Source of the DNA: a virus
Strand: one strand, 5' to 3'
Virus record (IMG/VR): IMGVR_UViG_3300013936_000008
Coordinates: 1 to 33,356 of that record
Length of the DNA stretch: 33,356 bases
Shown here: piece by piece, positions 2,243-28,667 of the stretch
How the letters are laid out: each line of letters begins with the position of its first letter
How positions within the stretch are numbered: position 1 is the first letter of the stretch
The notes under the pieces: generated by a model
Told to the model about the DNA's origin: nothing
What the model saw: the letters and a program-made list of their open reading frames with translations, nothing else
Databases searched by the model: none
Position numbers and translations under genes: made by a program

Positions 2243-4527
2243 TCGCGCACCTCCTCCTCAAGCTCCGTGTTGGTCACGGAAAGCTGATAACTCGTGTAAA
2301 ACATATCAACGGTCTTAGTCGTCGATGTCAGAACACCGATCGCCATCTCACCGCTGTCGGTCTTCAGGCACACCACGCGCCCGAGGAGCGCCTCCAAAGC
2401 CCTCATCCCGGCGCGGTCATCCGCCCAGAATGCCGCAGAGACCGTCAGCGTCTCGTCCAGAAACTCGCTCACGTCGACCGACGGGCGCGCCTGCCCGACG
2501 ATGTGATAGCTAGTCGCCTGTCGGGCGCGCGTCATGCCGTATGTGCGGTGCTGCTGCTCGCTCAGCTCCAGCCACAGCGCCGCGCGCGTTTCCACGTCGA
2601 TGATGACCGGGCAGCGAGGATAGACCTCAACTATCACGGGATCGCTGATGCCGTAGTTGTTGCTCGCGGGGTAGCACCCGCGCACCTTGTAGGTGCACAG
2701 CCCGCAGGAGAGATAGTCAAGGTATTCCGTCTCCGTCACCCGCGCGACGGCGACGTCGTCGCGGTACACAAGGTAATAGTCATACCCGCCGACGTTCCAC
2801 GTCAGCCGCACCGCTGCGCCCTCGCCCTGTGCCGTAAGCTGTATGCTTTCTCCTGACGTGTTGACGACAGTCAGCTCGACCGTGCCGGGCTGGCTCCAAC
2901 GTCCGTAGCTGTTCTGCACGCGCACGCTCACAGTGTGTACGCCGTCCGTGAGGTACTTCGGGCTTTGCCAGCGCTTCAGCGAGCCGTAGGCAGTGGTCTT
3001 CTCCCCGTCGAGCGTCAGCTCGTATGCTTCCTGCTCGTTCGCCTGCCACTCTATGATTGGCTTTGGGCTCGCGTTTTTGACGGTCAGCCGCGGCGCACGG
3101 GGAGACCCGACAGCGACAAACTGCGCAGCGGCGCTCCACGTCCCGGCAACGCCGTCGAGGTTGTACGTGCACACGCGCCACCACCATGTGCCGCTTGCGA
3201 GCGTTCCTGCCGCGATGACGGTCTCGGTCTCCGCGCCGGTCACAGTCACAAGGTCGGTCCACGCCTCGCCGTCGGTGCTCTTTTGCAGGTCGGCCTTGGT
3301 CTGCGCCGACCCCGTGGAGATGATGTGCTGCCACGCAAACGCGACGGGGTTGTCGTTGTCAACAATTGTGCCGATAGGTGAGACCGGCGCGGAAGAAGGC
3401 ACAGCATCCGTGGTGTCAATGGCGCGCCACTCCGTCACCCAGCTGTTGCCGTACTGGTCATTGCCAGCGACCGCCCACTCATACTCGCCGCTCGTCATGA
3501 CATTTTCGGCGAGAGTGTAGCCGTCCGCGCTGTTTGCCACGGTGTACTCAGTGTATTCCGCCGCGTCCTTTACCCGGAGGCGCAGCTTCGTGATGACTGC
3601 ACCGTCAACCGTCGTCCAGCTGAAGAGCTGAGGCTTCGTGCGGTCGAGAAACGCCCCATCTGCGGGGCTGAGCGACGTCGTGATGCTGACATATGAGGAC
3701 AGCTCCACCCAGTCGGACGTGCTGGTGTAGCCGAGGGCGTCCGTCACGGAGAATTGATACTCAAAAGCCCCCTCGGGCAGCAGATTCCCCGCGACCGCCT
3801 TGCTCGTCTCCGTGCCGAAGTCCACCTCGGTGTATGCCGTCGCGCCCTTGGCTCGAAGGTGCAGCTTGATGCTTGCAACATCGGGCGTCCTATAGCTCGT
3901 GTCAACGCTGCTTTTGAGCTTCACATCAAACATCTGGGCAATCGCACGGTTGCAGCGGGCTCCCGTTCGCGGGGATGTACTGTCGGCGATTTTATGACAC
4001 TGCCCATCGCCAAATTCAAGCCGCAGATACGGTTTACTGCTGCCATAGGCTGTCTGCACGTAGGCTGTCCAGTATGCGTCGTCATACGGCGTGCTCTCAT
4101 CTTTTAAGCAGTACAGAAGACCGTTGTCGAGTATCCGGCGTATTTTATAGGTGAAATAAGCCGGTGCGATGTCGCAAGTGACATAGCCGCCGGACGATGC
4201 GAACCGTCCGAACCCGATGTAATCGACCCCCGGCAGCGACGCATAGGTAAGCGATGATACGTCCACTGGCGCGCTCAACGCGCGGAATTCGCACTCCGGC
4301 GCGCCCCAGCCAGAGACCTCAACGCCGTACCCGTATGCGGCGACAGCCGCATTGGTGATGGGGCTGTACAGCTTTGAGGCAGGAACGGTAAAGCCATTAC
4401 AGACGATGCTGTGCAGATAACCGCCCTGGAGGACGACCTGCCCGGAGCCCTGCTCGCGATAATAAATATCCTGCCCGGATATTTTAACTGACGCAGTCGG
4501 GTATAAAGTCACCGTCTCGCTCATCAC
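2239..4527 (-). CDS. Distal-tail/baseplate protein with repeated Ig/FN3-like modules
   Basis: 762-aa ORF immediately after the tape measure (overlap 4524-4527). It has several beta-rich modules of about 90 aa with conserved W/Y spacing, and a C-terminal part weakly Dit-like. The call is mostly from synteny. Confidence 0.55.
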   Translation of the reverse strand: MMSETVTLYPTASVKISGQDIYYREQGSGQVVLQGGYLHSIVCNGFTVPASKLYSPITNAAVAAYGYGVEVSGWGAPECEFRALSAPVDVSSLTYASLPGVDYIGFGRFASSGGYVTCDIAPAYFTYKIRRILDNGLLYCLKDESTPYDDAYWTAYVQTAYGSSKPYLRLEFGDGQCHKIADSTSPRTGARCNRAIAQMFDVKLKSSVDTSYRTPDVASIKLHLRAKGATAYTEVDFGTETSKAVAGNLLPEGAFEYQFSVTDALGYTSTSDWVELSSYVSITTSLSPADGAFLDRTKPQLFSWTTVDGAVITKLRLRVKDAAEYTEYTVANSADGYTLAENVMTSGEYEWAVAGNDQYGNSWVTEWRAIDTTDAVPSSAPVSPIGTIVDNDNPVAFAWQHIISTGSAQTKADLQKSTDGEAWTDLVTVTGAETETVIAAGTLASGTWWWRVCTYNLDGVAGTWSAAAQFVAVGSPRAPRLTVKNASPKPIIEWQANEQEAYELTLDGEKTTAYGSLKRWQSPKYLTDGVHTVSVRVQNSYGRWSQPGTVELTVVNTSGESIQLTAQGEGAAVRLTWNVGGYDYYLVYRDDVAVARVTETEYLDYLSCGLCTYKVRGCYPASNNYGISDPVIVEVYPRCPVIIDVETRAALWLELSEQQHRTYGMTRARQATSYHIVGQARPSVDVSEFLDETLTVSAAFWADDRAGMRALEALLGRVVCLKTDSGEMAIGVLTSTTKTVDMFYTSYQLSVTNTELEEEVRE

Positions 4528-25013: not shown

Positions 25014-25029
25014 GTGCCCAGATGGGCAC
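25014..25029. repeat. 16-bp palindrome copy 5 (GTGCCCAGATGGGCAC; extends to the 22-bp palindrome AATGTGCCCAGATGGGCACATT)
   Basis: Exact motif, 2 nt after the stop of 24485..25012 and 11 nt before the GGAGGG of ltp. Confidence 0.95.
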
Positions 25030-25051
25030 ATTAGAATTTTGGAGGGTAGAT

Positions 25052-25978
25052 ATGAGAGCCTCTACAAAAGTGTTAATTAGCGTTGTTGTCGCAGGTGCTA
25101 TTTATTTTGGGCTTGCGCCTCAAATACAGGAGGCGCGCACAAACAGCCTCGAAAATGCTAAACCCGTCAACGCATTCTCCTCCATGTCTCCCACGCCGGA
25201 AGCCTCGCCCGAAATCCCCGCTGCAATTCCGGTTGAGCAGCAAGAAACCGCAATCAATGAGGCGTGCAAGTCGGCAGAGGACACACTCAGCAACTGGAGC
25301 GAGGTCTATGTTCGCCCCGTTACGGATTCTTCGGGCGCAACGACCGTTGAGATCTCTATCGTGAGTGATGCTACCGTCGCATTGGCAAAACAGCTGTGCG
25401 CCGCCGGAGAGGGCGAAACACCAGAATGGTATGAGCCCAAATATGAGCTTGAGCGTGTAGGCGCTGACATTTTGAGCGACCTCGAAAAATCCGGCGTGTC
25501 AAGCGCGCACGTCGACATCAGAATTTTTGACGCAGACAACTATAAGCAGTTCGTTGATACGGATGGCGCGGAAGATTTCAGCGTGCTGTACATCCGTGAT
25601 GGAGCGCAGATAAATGACGCCGTATTTGATTTCGTCCCGGCGGACATTTCCTACGACGAGGGCGCTGTCCCGGTTACTTATGACGTCGTGACAAGCGGGA
25701 TGCTGAATGCGCTGAAGCAAGCAGACAGTTATCTGTCTCACTCTGCATTCTCACGCTCGGGGCTGATAGATCAGCTCGTGTATCACGGCTACACACGTGA
25801 CGAGGCGATCTACGCCGTCAACACCTGCGGCGCGGACTGGGAAGAGCAAGCGGCGCTAAAGGCGGCGTCCTACTTGTCGCACTCGGCTTTTTCAAAAAAA
25901 GAATTGATCGAGCAACTTGAATACGAGGGCTTCACCCACGCGCAAGCCGTGCACGGTGTAAACTCAGTTTATGATTGA
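25052..25978 (+). CDS. ltp: Ltp-family superinfection-exclusion protein (two Ltp repeats), N-terminal TM anchor
   Basis: The C-terminus has two repeats, LKQADSYLSHSAFSRSGLIDQLVYHGYTRDEAIYAVNTCG and LKAASYLSHSAFSKKELIEQLEYEGFTHAQAVHGVNSV. This is the host cell surface-exposed lipoprotein (Ltp) motif. ATG at 25052 lies 5 nt after GGAGGG. Confidence 0.8.
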   Translation: MRASTKVLISVVVAGAIYFGLAPQIQEARTNSLENAKPVNAFSSMSPTPEASPEIPAAIPVEQQETAINEACKSAEDTLSNWSEVYVRPVTDSSGATTVEISIVSDATVALAKQLCAAGEGETPEWYEPKYELERVGADILSDLEKSGVSSAHVDIRIFDADNYKQFVDTDGAEDFSVLYIRDGAQINDAVFDFVPADISYDEGAVPVTYDVVTSGMLNALKQADSYLSHSAFSRSGLIDQLVYHGYTRDEAIYAVNTCGADWEEQAALKAASYLSHSAFSKKELIEQLEYEGFTHAQAVHGVNSVYD

Positions 25979-25991
25979 TCTTCCGCAACGC

Positions 25992-26020
25992 TTGACACGG
26001 CGCAAGCGTTGCGGTATAAT
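25992..26020 (+). promoter_or_regulatory. Perfect consensus sigma-A promoter TTGACA-17nt-TATAAT
   Basis: TTGACA at 25992-25997, exactly 17 nt of spacer, TATAAT at 26015-26020; no ORF follows before the terminator. Confidence 0.65.
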
Positions 26021-26026
26021 ATGCAT

Positions 26027-26115
26027 AGAAAAAGGCGCTGCCGGTTGACGGTCAGCCCCCAGTTGTCATTGAAGTAATCGCCGACTTTGTGAGGGTGCGG
26101 CGATTACTTCTTTTT
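26027..26115 (+). ncRNA. Predicted antisense sRNA of about 90 nt (candidate type I antitoxin)
   Basis: The RNA is bounded by the consensus promoter and terminator 26071-26115. It is antisense to the 3' end and 3' UTR of the toxin ORF. It carries CAGCCCCC (26053-26060), complementary to the toxin SD region. Confidence 0.5.
26071..26115 (+). terminator. Intrinsic terminator (13-bp stem + TTTTT)
   Basis: GAAGTAATCGCCG (26071-26083) pairs with CGGCGATTACTTC (26098-26110), followed by TTTTT at 26111-26115. Confidence 0.7.
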
Positions 26116-26187
26116 GTATGCCTGTATAAACAGGTTGCAAATACCGATGATTACTAAGCAAAGCTGTAACACTTCGTTCGTGCTCAT
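26104..26187 (-). CDS. 27-aa hydrophobic peptide, candidate type I toxin (holin-like toxin / Fst-like)
   Basis: MSTNEVLQLCLVIIGICNLFIQAYKKK. The SD AAAGGGGGG lies 6 nt upstream of the ATG at 26187. The peptide is embedded in the 66-aa track ORF 26104..26304, whose N-terminal part has no SD. Confidence 0.6.
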   Translation of the reverse strand: MSTNEVLQLCLVIIGICNLFIQAYKKK

Positions 26188-26292
26188 GGGCAGCCCCCCT
26201 TTCGAATCAGGGGGCAGAAGCTGCCCCCGTAAGTACAGGGGCTGATCGCCTACCGTTGTATGGCAACGCCTTAGTGCCGAAGCACCATCGAC

Positions 26293-26321
26293 AGGATAGC
26301 ACACGCGGCGGCAAAATGCAA
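26293..26321 (-). promoter_or_regulatory. Candidate promoter TTGCAT-17nt-TATCCT for the toxin mRNA
   Basis: -35 at 26321-26316 and -10 at 26298-26293; predicted leader of about 100 nt beginning with a GUGC-UUCG-GCAC hairpin. Confidence 0.4.
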
Positions 26322-26324
26322 GCT

Positions 26325-26351
26325 AGAAACTCAAGAGGAGGCAGCAGCATG
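26325..26351. repeat. Left copy of the 26-27-bp direct repeat flanking the IS (AGAAACTCAAGAGGAGGCAGCAGCATG)
   Basis: Identical to 27432-27458; contains the integrase SD (AGGAGG) and ATG. Confidence 0.95.
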
Positions 26352-27431
26352 TGTAGGTTAGTCAATGATGAGTTACACATTAGGAAAAGAAAAAAGGACA
26401 TCGCTGGGAGACTTCCAGTTGAGCGGACGCATTGGGAAATTATTATATTCCCGTTGACGTACAGCAAGCTGCTTCGCAAAATCGTCAAAAGAATAGAAAC
26501 GGTGAGACGCATAAAATTCCTCATTATCTTTTCTATGACTGCGTTCCACCTTGCCGTTATGTCTCGGGGTGAACGGTCTGATCTTTTTATGCTTGATTCC
26601 CAACTGCTCAAGCGTTTTCTCGAAGAGGGTAGGCGGCTTTTTCTTGCTGTTTCCCATCTCATTTGTAAATTCAAATCCGTTATCCGTTTGAACGCATTCT
26701 ATGGCGTATTGAAACTTCTTCACTACATGCATCAGGAAAACGGTCGAGGTATATGTGTCTTTTTCCTTGAAAGCCTCCAGATAACGAAAACGGCTGTATT
26801 CATCGATAAAAGTGTACTGGTAGTAGTAACCGCCGCACTCTTTAGCATCCTCTGCCGCTTCTCCGACAAGGCATGCAGAAGGAACATATTTCACATCGAT
26901 CTGAACCTTTTGACCGGGATACCGCATCTGCTCATAAGGCTTTGGAATATATTTCGGGTTTGGCAGCTTGGTCGGAGCACCGCCGATCCGCCGCAGCAGC
27001 TTATACAGCCCTGAGATAGATCTGGTATATCCGCGCCGGCGAAGCTTGACCCAGAAGACTACCAGACCGTCGTGTGGGTTCCTTCGGCGCATGTTTTTTA
27101 CCAACGTGATCTCTGCCTCTGTGTGCTGCTTTGGGTGGCTGTGGGGACGGTGGGAGCGATCTGCCAGCGAGTGAATGTCTCCATCATATTTCTTCTTCCA
27201 ACGATAGATATTCTGACGGCTGGTCTTGTAGCGGATTGCGGCCTTTGTGACACCATGCTTCATCGAATACTCAATTACTGCTTGCTTATACCGCATGTCT
27301 TGTGTTATTTTATTCATAGCGAATAGGGTACACCTGCCTTTCGGTTTTGTCTTGTCAACTCAACCTTAACACAGGTCGCTCCTATTCGCTATCTTTTTTT
27401 ACTTCCTGTCACACATCATTGTAACTCCTAC
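26352..27431 (-). mobile_element. Insertion sequence of about 1.08 kb (rve DDE transposase, IS481-like by size) with imperfect terminal inverted repeats
   Basis: The ends are TGTAGGTTAGTCAATGATGAG... and ...CACATCATTGTAACTCCTAC(A), with about 18/26 matches and TG..CA tips. There is a single transposase ORF. GC content is visibly lower than in the flanks, and the element is flanked by a 26-27-bp direct repeat. Confidence 0.85.
26373..27317 (-). CDS. DDE (rve/integrase-core) transposase with N-terminal HTH
   Basis: 314 aa with QIDVKY...YQYTFIDEYSRFRYL (D), VQTDNGFEF (D) and RPFTPRHNGKVERSHR (E) motifs. Confidence 0.9.
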   Translation of the reverse strand: MNKITQDMRYKQAVIEYSMKHGVTKAAIRYKTSRQNIYRWKKKYDGDIHSLADRSHRPHSHPKQHTEAEITLVKNMRRRNPHDGLVVFWVKLRRRGYTRSISGLYKLLRRIGGAPTKLPNPKYIPKPYEQMRYPGQKVQIDVKYVPSACLVGEAAEDAKECGGYYYQYTFIDEYSRFRYLEAFKEKDTYTSTVFLMHVVKKFQYAIECVQTDNGFEFTNEMGNSKKKPPTLFEKTLEQLGIKHKKIRPFTPRHNGKVERSHRKDNEEFYASHRFYSFDDFAKQLAVRQREYNNFPMRPLNWKSPSDVLFSFPNV

Positions 27432-27458
27432 AGAAACTCAAGAGGAGGCAGCAGCATG
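27432..27458. repeat. Right copy of the 26-27-bp direct repeat; supplies the functional SD and ATG of int
   Basis: Identical to 26325-26351. Confidence 0.95.
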
Positions 27459-28667
27459 GCACGAAAAGCCGCGCCGGAGTTTTATTTTGACGCGCGCCTT
27501 AAACAGTATCGCAAGCGTCTCAAGGACCCACGAACGGGCAAATGGTCGATAAGCGTTTATGGCAAAACCAAAGCCGAGTGCCGCGAAAAGGCCGCGCGCC
27601 GTGCCGCCGATCTGGCAGCAGCGGTGGAAGAGAGCACGGGCGGCGCGCTCGTGTATCAATACGCCAAGACGTGGTACGACCTCAACACCCGAGACCTCGG
27701 CGCGAAACGCCGGGACGATTATCGCAATGCGATAAATAATCACATCTGCCCCGTCATCGGCGAGAAGCGGCTGTCCGACGTCACGCTTGACGACGGGTTG
27801 GAGATCCTCCGCCGATCGCCGCAGTCAAAGTCGGCGCAGCAAAAGATAGTCACCGCGCTCAAAAGGATTTTTAAAGCGGCCGCAGACAATGATATGATCC
27901 GCCGCTCTCCGTTTGCGGATCTAAAGCCGGGCGGCAAGCCCGCCGCCGAGAAGCAAGCCCTGACGCGCGAGCAGCAGGCGGCGCTGCTGGACGCGGTCAA
28001 GAACTGTGCCGTTGAGCCGTTTGTGCACCTGTGTCTGTTTGCCGGTCTGCGACGGGAGGAGGCGCTCGGTCTGCGCTGGGCAAATGTGCACCTTGATGCC
28101 GTGCCGCCTTATCTTGATGTTCGCACTGCGTGCAGCTGGCAGGGCAGGAATCAAGCTGTCGTATCGGAAACGCTAAAGAGCGCCGCCGCGCGCCGGTCTA
28201 TTCCTCTGCCTCCGCCGCTCGTTGAGAGCTTGACGGCTTTAAAAGCCGCGTCGGCGAGCGAGTATGTCGTCTGCAACCGCTCCGGCGGTGCAGTGTCCGC
28301 CACCGGTTTCCGTCGTATGTGGGGCGTGATTGCGCAGCGCACCGTGCGCGACGGCTATGCTCTCGGCGACAAAATTAAAAACCACAACATCACCGTGACA
28401 TTAGACTTCCACGTCACGCCGCACCAGCTCCGGCACACGTATATAACCGAGCTCGTGCAGTCCGGCGCGGACATCAAGACCGTGCAGTACCTCGCCGGTC
28501 ATGCGACCGTCCAGCTCACACTTAATATCTACACGCACTTGATGACGAACCGTCCCGAGGACACGGCGGTGCAGGTACTAAAAGCGTTTGGGGCTTTTTA
28601 TTCGGGCTACAAAAGCAGTTCAGGCAGCGGTCAACCCGTTGATGGCACTGCGCTTCAGACGGTTTGA
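27456..28667 (+). CDS. int: Tyrosine site-specific integrase
   Basis: 403 aa with ...GLRREEALGLRW... and HQLRHTYITELVQSGADIKTVQYLAGHATVQLTLNIYTHL (R..HxxR..Y catalytic set); adjacent to the tRNA-derived att core. Confidence 0.95.
   Translation: MARKAAPEFYFDARLKQYRKRLKDPRTGKWSISVYGKTKAECREKAARRAADLAAAVEESTGGALVYQYAKTWYDLNTRDLGAKRRDDYRNAINNHICPVIGEKRLSDVTLDDGLEILRRSPQSKSAQQKIVTALKRIFKAAADNDMIRRSPFADLKPGGKPAAEKQALTREQQAALLDAVKNCAVEPFVHLCLFAGLRREEALGLRWANVHLDAVPPYLDVRTACSWQGRNQAVVSETLKSAAARRSIPLPPPLVESLTALKAASASEYVVCNRSGGAVSATGFRRMWGVIAQRTVRDGYALGDKIKNHNITVTLDFHVTPHQLRHTYITELVQSGADIKTVQYLAGHATVQLTLNIYTHLMTNRPEDTAVQVLKAFGAFYSGYKSSSGSGQPVDGTALQTV
28604..28611. repeat. GGGCTACA motif (candidate P-arm integrase arm-type site)
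   Basis: Same octamer as in 28820-28858, located on the other side of the att core. Confidence 0.35.

Follow-up and report, generated by a model that had tools for sequence, protein, structure and literature searches.

Insertion of an IS481-related element upstream of a promoter as the probable source of a 26-bp target-site duplication in a temperate phage

In the stretch of temperate phage DNA analysed here (the window, 33,356 nt), the sequence AGAAACTCAAGAGGAGGCAGCAGCATG occurs as two exact copies, at 26325–26351 and 27432–27458, adjoining the ends of an element of about 1.08 kb. A sequence-only reading had taken the repeat for an unusually long target-site duplication, left by an insertion sequence (IS) that landed exactly at the start of an integrase gene. 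The locus therefore raises two questions: whether transposition produced so long a repeat, and why the element lies where it does. The answer reached, with high confidence, is that the repeat is a 26-bp target-site duplication made by a member of an IS481-related clade that inserts in a fixed register to promoters.

The earlier description of the element was borne out on recheck. The 27-mer copies cannot be extended (preceding base T vs. C, following base T vs. G), and 100 shuffles gave no match, even with three mismatches allowed. The imperfect inverted repeats, TGTAGG...CCTACA at their tips, have 26-nt arms that are 73% complementary: IRR, distal to the transposase gene, at 26352–26377 and IRL, proximal to it, at 27407–27432. 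Between the repeat copies there is one intact ORF, for a 314-aa rve-type DDE transposase (26373–27317, minus strand), and GC content is 46.0%, against 60.4% in the rest of the window. The A at 27432 ends the IS tip (ACA) and at the same time opens the repeat. Given symmetric TGT...ACA tips, the IS is therefore 26352–27432 (1,081 bp, with its transposase gene on the minus strand) and the duplication is 26326–26351 and 27433–27458, so that the repeat, first put at 26–27 bp, is real but shortens to 26 bp, its 27th base being common to the IS tip. The left copy holds a duplicate of the integrase Shine-Dalgarno (SD) sequence (GAGGAGG) and ATG (26349–26351), and the right copy holds the functional ones (SD 27442–27448, ATG 27456–27458).

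The empty site is available for comparison. In IMG/VR no integrase relatives were found and a junction-spanning DNA pattern gave no match; a metagenome scan yielded only one IS-free relative (L089), 67% identical and with another upstream gene, in which the SD–ATG region is also single. The exact empty site was located through a look-up of the neighbouring Ltp gene, in IS-free copies of the same phage from two other samples (L096 and L094), 99.9% identical to the window in the left flank and 98.1–98.5% in the right. Their Ltp–int spacing is 371 bp, or 1,478 minus 1,107; each has a single copy of the 27-mer, and the flanks are joined as predicted for removal of a transposed element and one copy of its target-site duplication. 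Compared with the integrase of the IS-free relative, that of the window has 7 synonymous and 9 nonsynonymous codon differences and is undisrupted.

The long duplication is a property of a whole group of elements. Thirty independent insertions of related ISs (64–96% amino acid identity; 1,056–1,136 bp) in Clostridia genomes have duplications of 25–27 bp, and the duplicated sequences at all 31 sites, the window included, differ from one another. The raw direct repeats, 25–30 bp long, adjoin the TGTAGG...CCTACA tips; corrected for these, the duplications are 25 bp at 12 sites, 26 bp at 15 and 27 bp at four. Neither of the outcomes that the sequence-only reading had named as refuting, two 27-mers in IS-free relatives or short duplications at other insertions, was observed. 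None is under 15 bp among these 31 matched sites, most of the relatives being from metagenome-assembled genomes, in which repeats can be misassembled, and some 20 further loci having no matched duplication. The same IS is present at other sites in two loci (L001 and L002; 99.6–99.8% identical); the two have one flank in common but not the other, as in chimeric or collapsed contigs, so they were rejected as full loci and used as single flanks only. Five annotated canonical IS481 plasmid copies, checked as a control, had no clean flanking repeat of any length, and the canonical range used here is a published one: 2–15 bp, with 6 the most frequent (ISfinder data cited in PMC10045372). No IS481-like element with a duplication of ~26 bp was found described in the literature, although the clade may already carry a name, novelty having been judged from papers rather than from ISfinder entries.

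By sequence, IS481-like is the best available assignment, as had been proposed from size and single ORF. The transposase has an N-terminal helix-turn-helix (HTH) and a DDE (rve) core, with HTH_28, rve and rve_3 domains and no sequence beyond the rve_3 region. The best-scoring family model is that of NCBIfam for IS481 (NF033577; 209.7 bits, E = 6e-62, model positions 8–283 of 284), just below its curated cutoff of 224; the next best family is IS21, at 62.6 bits. The only ISNCY-type model matched is NF033594, which may not represent IS1202, and the match is weak (33 bits against a cutoff of 250). Like IS481 family members generally, the element has a single unframeshifted ORF for an HTH and DDE transposase of ~310 aa, a length (~1.05–1.1 kb) within the family's ~1–1.3 kb, and TGT...ACA tips; D141, D212 and E258 are intact and, like the NGKVER motif, can be aligned with those of five annotated IS481 transposases, the three acidic residues being invariant. 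Unlike them, it scores below the family cutoff, has only 29–36% identity to annotated IS481 transposases, and, in the same five-sequence alignment, has 11 extra residues, specific to the clade, between D212 and E258. The duplications, 25–27 bp at 31 of 31 matched sites rather than 2–15 bp, and the fixed-register promoter target described below, which is not described for the family, set the clade further apart. Public sources label clade members merely “transposase” or “InsO family.” The IS thus falls in a separate clade related to IS481 that is common in Oscillospiraceae of the gut and in other Clostridia. Of the two options first offered, an atypical small member or an undescribed insertion mode, the former stands, except that the whole clade is atypical.

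Duplications of this length are known from two sets of relatives. In the IS1202 group (IS1202 family, formerly ISNCY), they are 27–28 bp in 38 examples, or 16–28 or 24–29 bp in other tallies; the transposase is a distant relative of that of IS481 and falls inside IS481 in one phylogeny (bioRxiv 10.1101/2022.12.17.520857; PMC10132070; PMC10045372). The ranges given in the sequence-only reading, up to 15 bp for IS481 and 24–29 bp for the IS1202 group, agree with these sources (PMC10045372; bioRxiv 10.1101/2022.12.17.520857). The clade's 25–27 bp fall within the ~24–29 bp of that group and the tips are likewise of TGT type, but IS1202 elements are ~1.5 kb long and encode ~440–500 aa with extra C-terminal parts, compared with 1.08 kb and 314 aa here, and no target has been found for them (PMC10132070). 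The IS481EU/Banshee transposons of parabasalids, also IS481-related and with TGT...ACA tips, have duplications near 4, 15 and 25 bp (PMC10045372). They resemble the clade in having discrete lengths but are eukaryotic, and their rare 24–25 bp class is mixed with 4 and 15 bp in one family; the clade described here is uniform over 31 sites and has a promoter target in addition.

The ends of the element bear on how it moves. IRR holds an outward-facing -35-like TTGACT (reverse complement of 26360–26365), 8 nt from the tip, and IRL an inward-facing -10-like TACAAT (reverse complement of 27418–27423), 9 nt from the tip; abutted, they read TTGACT-17-TACAAT. Of 31 related elements, 30 have TTGACA at this distance from the IRR tip, where the window has TTGACT, and TACAAT is 8–9 nt from the IRL tip, giving a spacer of 16–17 nt when the ends are abutted. 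A promoter that is completed at a circle junction, the -35 facing outward from one end and the -10 inward from the other, is a criterion for copy-out-paste-in transposition (bioRxiv 10.1101/2022.12.17.520857), and both boxes are present here. Because these boxes would make a promoter when the ends abut, they suggest copy-out-paste-in transposition through a circle intermediate.

Insertion sites of the clade are aligned to promoters. At 27 of the 31, a TTGACA-16/18-TATAAT sequence with at least 9 of 12 matches begins 3–5 nt (typically 4) beyond the duplication; 0.53% of 9,506 control positions have the same promoter match. The targeted promoters fire away from the IS, their median match is 11 of 12, and information content peaks at TTG and TAnAAT. 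SD-preceded ORFs follow 26 of the 31, at a median distance of 48.5 nt. One-sided flanks from loci without matched repeats behave similarly: a promoter is present in 27 of 43 on the IRL side and in 11 of 38 on the IRR side, compared with 0.8% of controls. The clade thus places its insertions at a fixed register upstream of a sigma-70/sigmaA-type -35 box, a targeting rule not found described in the literature for any bacterial IS. Fixed insertions are survivors of selection, so that the promoter enrichment, unlike the fixed 4-nt register, is partly a filter.

In the window, the target would be a promoter on the minus strand that serves a small toxin-like gene. The promoter-like sequence (26293–26321, minus strand) is TTGCAT-17-TGcTATCCT, with its -35 at 26321–26316, its -10 at 26298–26293, and a 17-nt spacer ending in the TGc of an extended -10. 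It begins 4 nt (TAGC) past the duplication and points to the toxin-like ORF, with the IS behind it. With 7 of 12 matches it went unreported in a generic promoter scan; by a position weight matrix (PWM) from the other 30 target sites it is, however, among the highest 0.09% of window positions and the highest 0.8% of unrelated loci. It is best regarded as a weak, putative promoter that fits the rule by register and PWM rank. The ORF it would serve (26104–26187, minus strand) encodes a hydrophobic peptide of 27 aa, MSTNEVLQLCLVIIGICNLFIQAYKKK, preceded by the SD GAAAGGGGGG; the peptide has no significant match in Pfam and is called toxin-like from form and context.

The position at the integrase start, originally read as related to the integrase, follows instead from the clade rule, which puts the insertion 4 nt plus the duplication upstream of the -35 of the toxin-like gene. 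The integrase SD and ATG were copied because they occupy roughly -40 to -66 of that gene's minus-strand promoter. The integrase itself (27456–28667, plus strand), a tyrosine integrase of 403 aa, is intact and, at the sequence level, retains SD and ATG at a distance of 1.1 kb from its former upstream region, as had been pointed out. A candidate for its former promoter, from a consensus scan only, is TCGACA-18-CAAAAT (26288–26317, plus strand; 9 of 12 matches), which now points through the left repeat into the IS and is antisense to the transposase gene. The insertion would thus account for the duplication of the integrase start; a change in how the integrase is controlled is predicted. The antisense reading frame reported to open in the left repeat exists, but has 221 rather than 225 codons (26349–27014, plus strand), beginning at the duplicated integrase SD and ATG. 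Since 27 of the 31 related elements close it within ~50 codons, it was rejected as a gene; it is probably a by-product.

These observations fit a mechanism in which the 1,081-bp IS transposed into the phage and produced the 26-bp duplication, its transpososome joining the two IS ends to target phosphates 25–27 bp apart. Such a stagger would exceed the 5–6 bp of typical relatives by about two helical turns, which would keep both joints on one face of the helix. In keeping with this, duplication lengths in IS1202 and IS481EU relatives fall into discrete classes near 5, 15, and 25 bp (PMC10045372; bioRxiv 10.1101/2022.12.17.520857), and those of IS481EU/Banshee support a helical-repeat rule for the stagger. 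The near joint would be made 4 nt upstream of the -35 hexamer and the far joint ~30 nt upstream, so that the IS would sit just upstream of an intact promoter firing away from it. The transposase gene is divergent from that promoter at ~80% of sites (26 of the 31 counted) and co-directional at the remainder (five, including the window).

How the register is recognised can be explained in more than one way. The transposase itself may read the promoter, its HTH recognising a TTGACA-like hexamer, also present in its own IRR, with the active sites 4 and 30 nt away; this is a tentative explanation, but one that comes close to even odds in our judgement. The -10 would then only accompany the hexamer, since TTGACA between genes usually marks a real promoter and genic insertions are purged. 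Consistent with this, conservation across the target is highest at the TTG of the -35 (30, 29, and 27 of 31), 30 of 31 elements have TTGACA within IRR, a protein of only 314 aa has no spare domain, and a good -10 is found at 6 of 10 untargeted intergenic TTGACA hexamers compared with 14 of 17 targets (p = 0.36, in a small sample). The bases around the target hexamer are, however, unlike those in the inverted repeat (C is preferred before TTGACA, where the inverted repeat has A), and spacing and polarity relative to the joint differ, with 8 nt inside the tip in one case and 4 nt outside the joint in the other. Further, one site (L080) is in canonical register with TACCGC in place of a -35 and a perfect extended -10 (TGcTATAAT), and several others keep only TTG, along with a perfect -10.

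Pairing of a weak -35 with a perfect or extended -10 (L080, L062, L009, and the window) would be easier to understand if the landmark were the promoter-bound sigmaA RNA polymerase holoenzyme, with docking on sigma region 4 or the alpha C-terminal domains from the upstream side of the promoter complex. Integration would go into the upstream DNA from about -40 to -66, and the 26-bp stagger would be set by the geometry of that complex. This possibility is a serious one but is held with less confidence. All sigmaA promoter elements are enriched in register, the -10 and the TG of an extended -10 included (T at 18 and G at 13 of 31 sites, at the expected positions); the high median match marks near-consensus promoters, which are likely highly occupied; and the near joint, just upstream of the -35, would fall at ~-40 by standard promoter geometry. 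A class II activator, which sits at about -41, provides an analogue. On the other hand, the -10 enrichment is not significantly above that at untargeted intergenic TTGACA hexamers (a small sample), and a contact with polymerase is putative for a 314-aa transposase without an obvious interaction domain. If guided by polymerase, this would be the first bacterial IS steered by RNA polymerase, and a prokaryotic counterpart of Ty3/Tf1 targeting. In the Ty3 and Tf1 retrotransposons, the transcription machinery or promoter fixes the position of integration, and coding sequence is spared; the likeness is by analogy only, element types, hosts, and targeting factors being unrelated.

It is very improbable that the promoter association comes purely from selection after random insertion, with survivors in harmless upstream regions. 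Many insertions in coding sequence must indeed be purged, 137 of the 147 TTGACA hexamers (93%) in the sampled loci being located there, but purging can account neither for a fixed 4-nt distance (range 3–5) from duplication to -35, seen at 27 of 31 sites, nor for the invariable direction of the promoters, away from the IS. That the 27-mer is no product of transposition at all, but a pre-existing duplication, an att-like or other recombination site, or an integrase-start sequence recognised by the IS, might be argued from its length alone, far beyond the 2–15 bp recorded for IS481 (PMC10045372), but is refuted by the seamless single-copy junction of the IS-free phages, the single SD–ATG region of L089, and 30 other insertions with equally long, unrelated duplications.

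Insertion at a set distance from a landmark has precedents. The ISAjo2/ISAba32 group, at dif/pdif sites, and Tn7, at attTn7, also use an asymmetric landmark beyond the duplication, with a constant spacing of 5 bp to the XerC arm in the first case and of ~25 bp to the TnsD site in the second (PMC10132070). As in the clade, orientation is preferred and the site is a “safe haven,” but the landmark is Xer- or glmS-related rather than a promoter and the duplication is 5 bp rather than 25–27 bp; the clade moreover has no accessory targeting protein, and its landmark occurs hundreds of times per genome. An upstream preference of this kind would offer hundreds of safe landing sites per genome while leaving the core promoter intact. 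Insertion displaces the regulatory DNA formerly upstream of the targeted promoter, and may in this way rewire gene control in Clostridia that are abundant in the gut, as well as in their phages. With respect to the enzyme, the ~25-bp duplication class is extended from the large IS1202 enzymes and sporadic IS481EU cases to a compact IS481-type transposase, in which it is uniform; at 314 aa, this could serve as a minimal system for how a DDE transpososome spaces its strand transfers (~5, 15, or 26 bp, one helical turn apart). There is also a consequence for annotation: the elements fall below the NCBI IS481 cutoff and are called just “transposase,” and tools expecting duplications of <15 bp will miss the IS boundaries of the clade.

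Two further features of the element were considered. An outward promoter-like site beside the integrase (27366–27395) is present in only 7 of 31 elements and was rejected as a clade feature. No Rfam families were found across 25900–27500, and sequence comparison detected no solved structure. The transposase leader can be folded into a hairpin (27316–27392, minus strand) with 31-nt arms that are 74% complementary, its 3′ arm covering the transposase start codon. The minimum free energy stem is kept, with compensatory changes, in the window and three related elements (L007, L020, and L048), and probably dampens translation of read-through transcripts.

The 27-mer AGAAACTCAAGAGGAGGCAGCAGCATG occurs exactly twice in the window, at 26325-26351 and 27432-27458. 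The sequence-only reading took this for an exact repeat pair flanking an IS-type element, which is borne out by the positions, by shuffled sequence (zero 27-mer matches with 3 mismatches allowed), and by the element's tips, TGTAGG... and ...CCTACA, whose arms of 26 nt are 73% complementary. The bases beyond the two copies are unlike each other, so the repeat does not extend further. The A at 27432 is ambiguous, being either the final base of the IS tip or the first of the repeat; symmetric TGT...ACA tips give an IS of 1,081 bp (26352-27432, minus strand) and a duplication of 26 bp. The sole ORF (26373-27317, minus strand; 314 aa) carries HTH_28, rve, and rve_3 domains. Its catalytic residues D141, D212, and E258 are present in alignment with annotated IS481 transposases, and it is an intact DDE transposase. 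The GC content is, as had been claimed, lower in the IS (46.0%) than in the remainder of the window (60.4%).

Empty sites were sought in public assemblies via the neighboring Ltp-like gene. The gap between this gene and the integrase is 371 bp in the same-phage contigs found vs. 1,478 bp in the window, and the difference is exactly 1,107 bp, the IS plus one repeat copy. Two such contigs without the IS, L096 (Logan SRR29834373) and L094 (ENA ERZ26858509), match the window at 99.9% identity through 26351 and at 98.1-98.5% from 27432 onward, and read as the window minus the IS and one repeat copy. Other loci (L003/L093, L004, and L097) have the IS at the window's position and are identical to it there; a more distant relative without the IS (L089; integrase 67% identical) has one Shine-Dalgarno (SD)-ATG region. 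The empty sites show directly that the 26-bp repeat is a target-site duplication, as had been proposed: the IS-free relatives of this phage have one 27-mer each, not two.

In a transposase scan of species-representative genomes, relatives were encoded at 325 loci. The best 80 of these (64-96% amino acid identity) belong to Clostridia from the guts of humans and animals, Oscillospiraceae and Acutalibacteraceae among them; IMG/VR contigs supplied four more. Where both flanks are present and matched, a direct repeat of 25-30 bp abuts TGTAGG...CCTACA-type tips. There are 30 such independent sites plus the window, with a different repeat sequence at each. Once bases shared with the tips are discounted, 12 sites have a duplication of 25 bp, 15 of 26 bp, and 4 of 27 bp; none of the 31 is under 15 bp, and the long duplication is a property of the element. 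At some 20 further loci no matched flanking repeat was found. Most of these are attributed, provisionally, to assembly chimeras or inter-copy recombination, because L001 and L002, short metagenome contigs with the window's IS (99.6-99.8% identical), have one flank in common and the other different. All three of these flanks carry a promoter at the distance described below, a sign that assembly has collapsed several recent insertions. In a viral contig (L086, ~3446-3540), the duplication is followed by more tandem copies of a near-identical ~25-nt unit (GGGAAAAATCTACAGATTTCA...); the IS therefore borders a tandem repeat array that was there before it.

When the 31 reconstructed empty sites are aligned on the duplication end, a TTGACA-like hexamer begins 4 nt past the duplication on one side, followed after 16-18 nt by a TATAAT-like hexamer, the promoter pointing away from the IS. 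Matches of at least 9/12 are found at 27 of the sites, vs. 0.53% of 9,506 control positions in the same loci; 22 match at 10/12 or better, and nine at 12/12. The promoter adjoins the transposase-proximal end, divergent from the transposase gene, in 26 cases and the distal end in five. Single flanks from loci without matched repeats behave likewise, with a promoter at 27/43 proximal and 11/38 distal ends (controls, 0.8%). An SD-preceded ORF lies downstream of 26 of the 31 promoters, at a median distance of 48.5 nt. Of the two joints, the near one lies just upstream of the -35 box and the far one ~30 nt upstream, and the core promoter and the gene it serves remain intact after insertion. Selection alone cannot give the fixed 4-nt register and constant polarity, and this promoter-upstream register is therefore a targeting rule. 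In two metagenome-assembled genomes (L060 and L061, ~2300-2360 in each), a clade IS lies upstream of seemingly the same promoter and gene, with similar -10 and leader, downstream ORFs of 760 and 761 aa, and unrelated duplications, which suggests independent hits on one promoter.

The rule could be read from the DNA in two ways. The chance that the transposase itself reads the -35 is put just short of even: TTG dominates target conservation (30, 29, and 27 of 31, the best-conserved bases together with T-A---T of the -10), and the transposase-distal inverted repeat (IRR) contains the same hexamer. Slightly more tentatively, the transpososome may recognize polymerase-bound promoters. The -10 and the extended -10 TG are also enriched in register, the targets are near consensus, and sites such as L080 have no -35 and a perfect extended -10. 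A good -10 accompanies 14 of 17 TTGACA hexamers at targets and 6 of 10 untargeted intergenic ones, a difference that is not significant in this small sample (p = 0.36).

The targeting rule also accounts for the window's own site. Past the duplication, the minus strand reads TAGC, then TTGCAT, a 17-nt spacer with TGc at its end, and TATCCT (26321-26293). By plain counting this promoter is weak (7/12), and a generic promoter scan missed it; with a weight matrix from the other 30 sites it is in the top 0.09% of the window's 66,640 positions, in the expected register, and in the top 0.8% of unrelated-locus positions. The window has the minority orientation, with the promoter at the transposase-distal end. 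The integrase SD and ATG are duplicated because both fall within about -40 to -66 of this divergent promoter. The sequence-only reading had the IS exactly at the integrase start; the position stands, but it is set by the divergent minus-strand promoter-like sequence, not by the integrase.

After a long leader, this promoter is followed by a good SD and a 27-aa hydrophobic peptide with a KKK end (26187-26104, minus strand). The layout of 25992-26321 is like that of a type I toxin-antitoxin module. Transcription from a perfect promoter on the plus strand (TTGACA-17-TATAAT, 25992-26020) would yield an RNA of ~90 nt with a 13-bp perfect hairpin (26071-26110) and T-run at its end. This RNA would overlap, in antisense, the 3'-terminal part of the peptide gene (26104-26187), whose mRNA has a structured leader of ~100 nt. 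Upstream of this module, a gene (25022-25978) encodes a protein with two Lipoprotein_Ltp repeats; the family has been connected with superinfection exclusion by temperate phages that infect Gram-positive hosts. In L089 an unrelated gene replaces it.

With a 5' stagger of ~26 bp, the two phosphates under attack would share the face of B-DNA that they occupy with a stagger of 5 bp or 15-16 bp, and the clade would be limited to the class with two extra turns. This agrees with the discrete duplication classes of the IS1202 family (5-6, 16-17, and 27-28 bp; bioRxiv 10.1101/2022.12.17.520857) and of IS481EU (~4, 15, and 25 bp; PMC10045372). A candidate determinant of stagger length is an 11-residue basic insertion, NEMGNSKKKPP, between D212 and E258 (residues ~219-231; 26625-26663, minus strand), which is clade-specific and not in the five annotated IS481 transposases compared; in the IS1202 family, catalytic-domain indels separate duplication-length subgroups (bioRxiv 10.1101/2022.12.17.520857). 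In these elements an outward TTGACA lies 8 nt from the IRR tip (30/31; TTGACT in the window), and at the transposase-proximal end a TACAAT faces inward, 8-9 nt from that tip, so that joined ends would make a promoter with a 16-17-nt spacer. Such an end-junction promoter is a hallmark of copy-out-paste-in IS (bioRxiv 10.1101/2022.12.17.520857), and we infer a circle intermediate and this mode of transposition. A hairpin in the transposase leader (27316-27392, minus-strand RNA) joins the area around the start codon to a stretch further upstream; its stem is kept in relatives by compensatory changes (AGG/CCT, AGA/TCT), and in L048 with a different sequence. It would probably dampen expression of resident copies.

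The suggested IS481-like assignment holds in that IS481 is the best family model (209.7 bits; next family 62.6), although the score is under the NCBI cutoff of 224 and identity to annotated IS481 transposases is 29-36%. The clade has the architectural features of IS481 but not its duplication length; it shares the latter with the IS1202 group, from which it differs in IS size and protein architecture, and for whose long-duplication members a target was not found (PMC10132070). A literature search, with ISfinder outside it, found neither an IS481-like element with a ~26-bp duplication nor any bacterial IS that targets promoters in a fixed register. The elements are best described as a clade of compact IS related to IS481, which duplicate 25-27 bp uniformly and insert upstream of promoters; of the two traits, the targeting is the more interesting result. 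A broken copy (70% identical across 61% of the protein) directly follows a tyrosine recombinase gene on a Monoglobus pectinilyticus plasmid (L098, NZ_OY725741.1, 2501-3130); annotated only as "helix-turn-helix domain-containing protein," it exemplifies how the clade escapes IS annotation.

The window encodes a large terminase, portal, tape measure, endolysin, DnaB-like helicase, ParA/ParB-like proteins, CI-type repressors, the Ltp-like lipoprotein, and the integrase, and its first 70 nt (1-70) exactly repeat its last (33287-33356); it is a complete temperate tailed phage of ~33.3 kb, a circular assembly that includes the IS. The integrase is intact; it differs from the IS-free copy at 7 synonymous and 9 nonsynonymous codons and shows no sign of decay. 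A promoter scan places its candidate former promoter at 26288-26317. The former upstream region now runs into the left repeat copy and an antisense frame, reported earlier as 225 codons; the frame exists, at 221 codons, but it is not conserved among relatives, so it is regarded as a by-product and rejected as a gene. An outward promoter-like site in the IS (27366-27395) is found in only 7 of the 31 elements. Since a scan of 25900-27600 found no terminator-like sites, transcriptional read-through into the integrase gene may be possible. Several samples, drawn from at least two studies, contain the IS-bearing form of the phage, which therefore persists.
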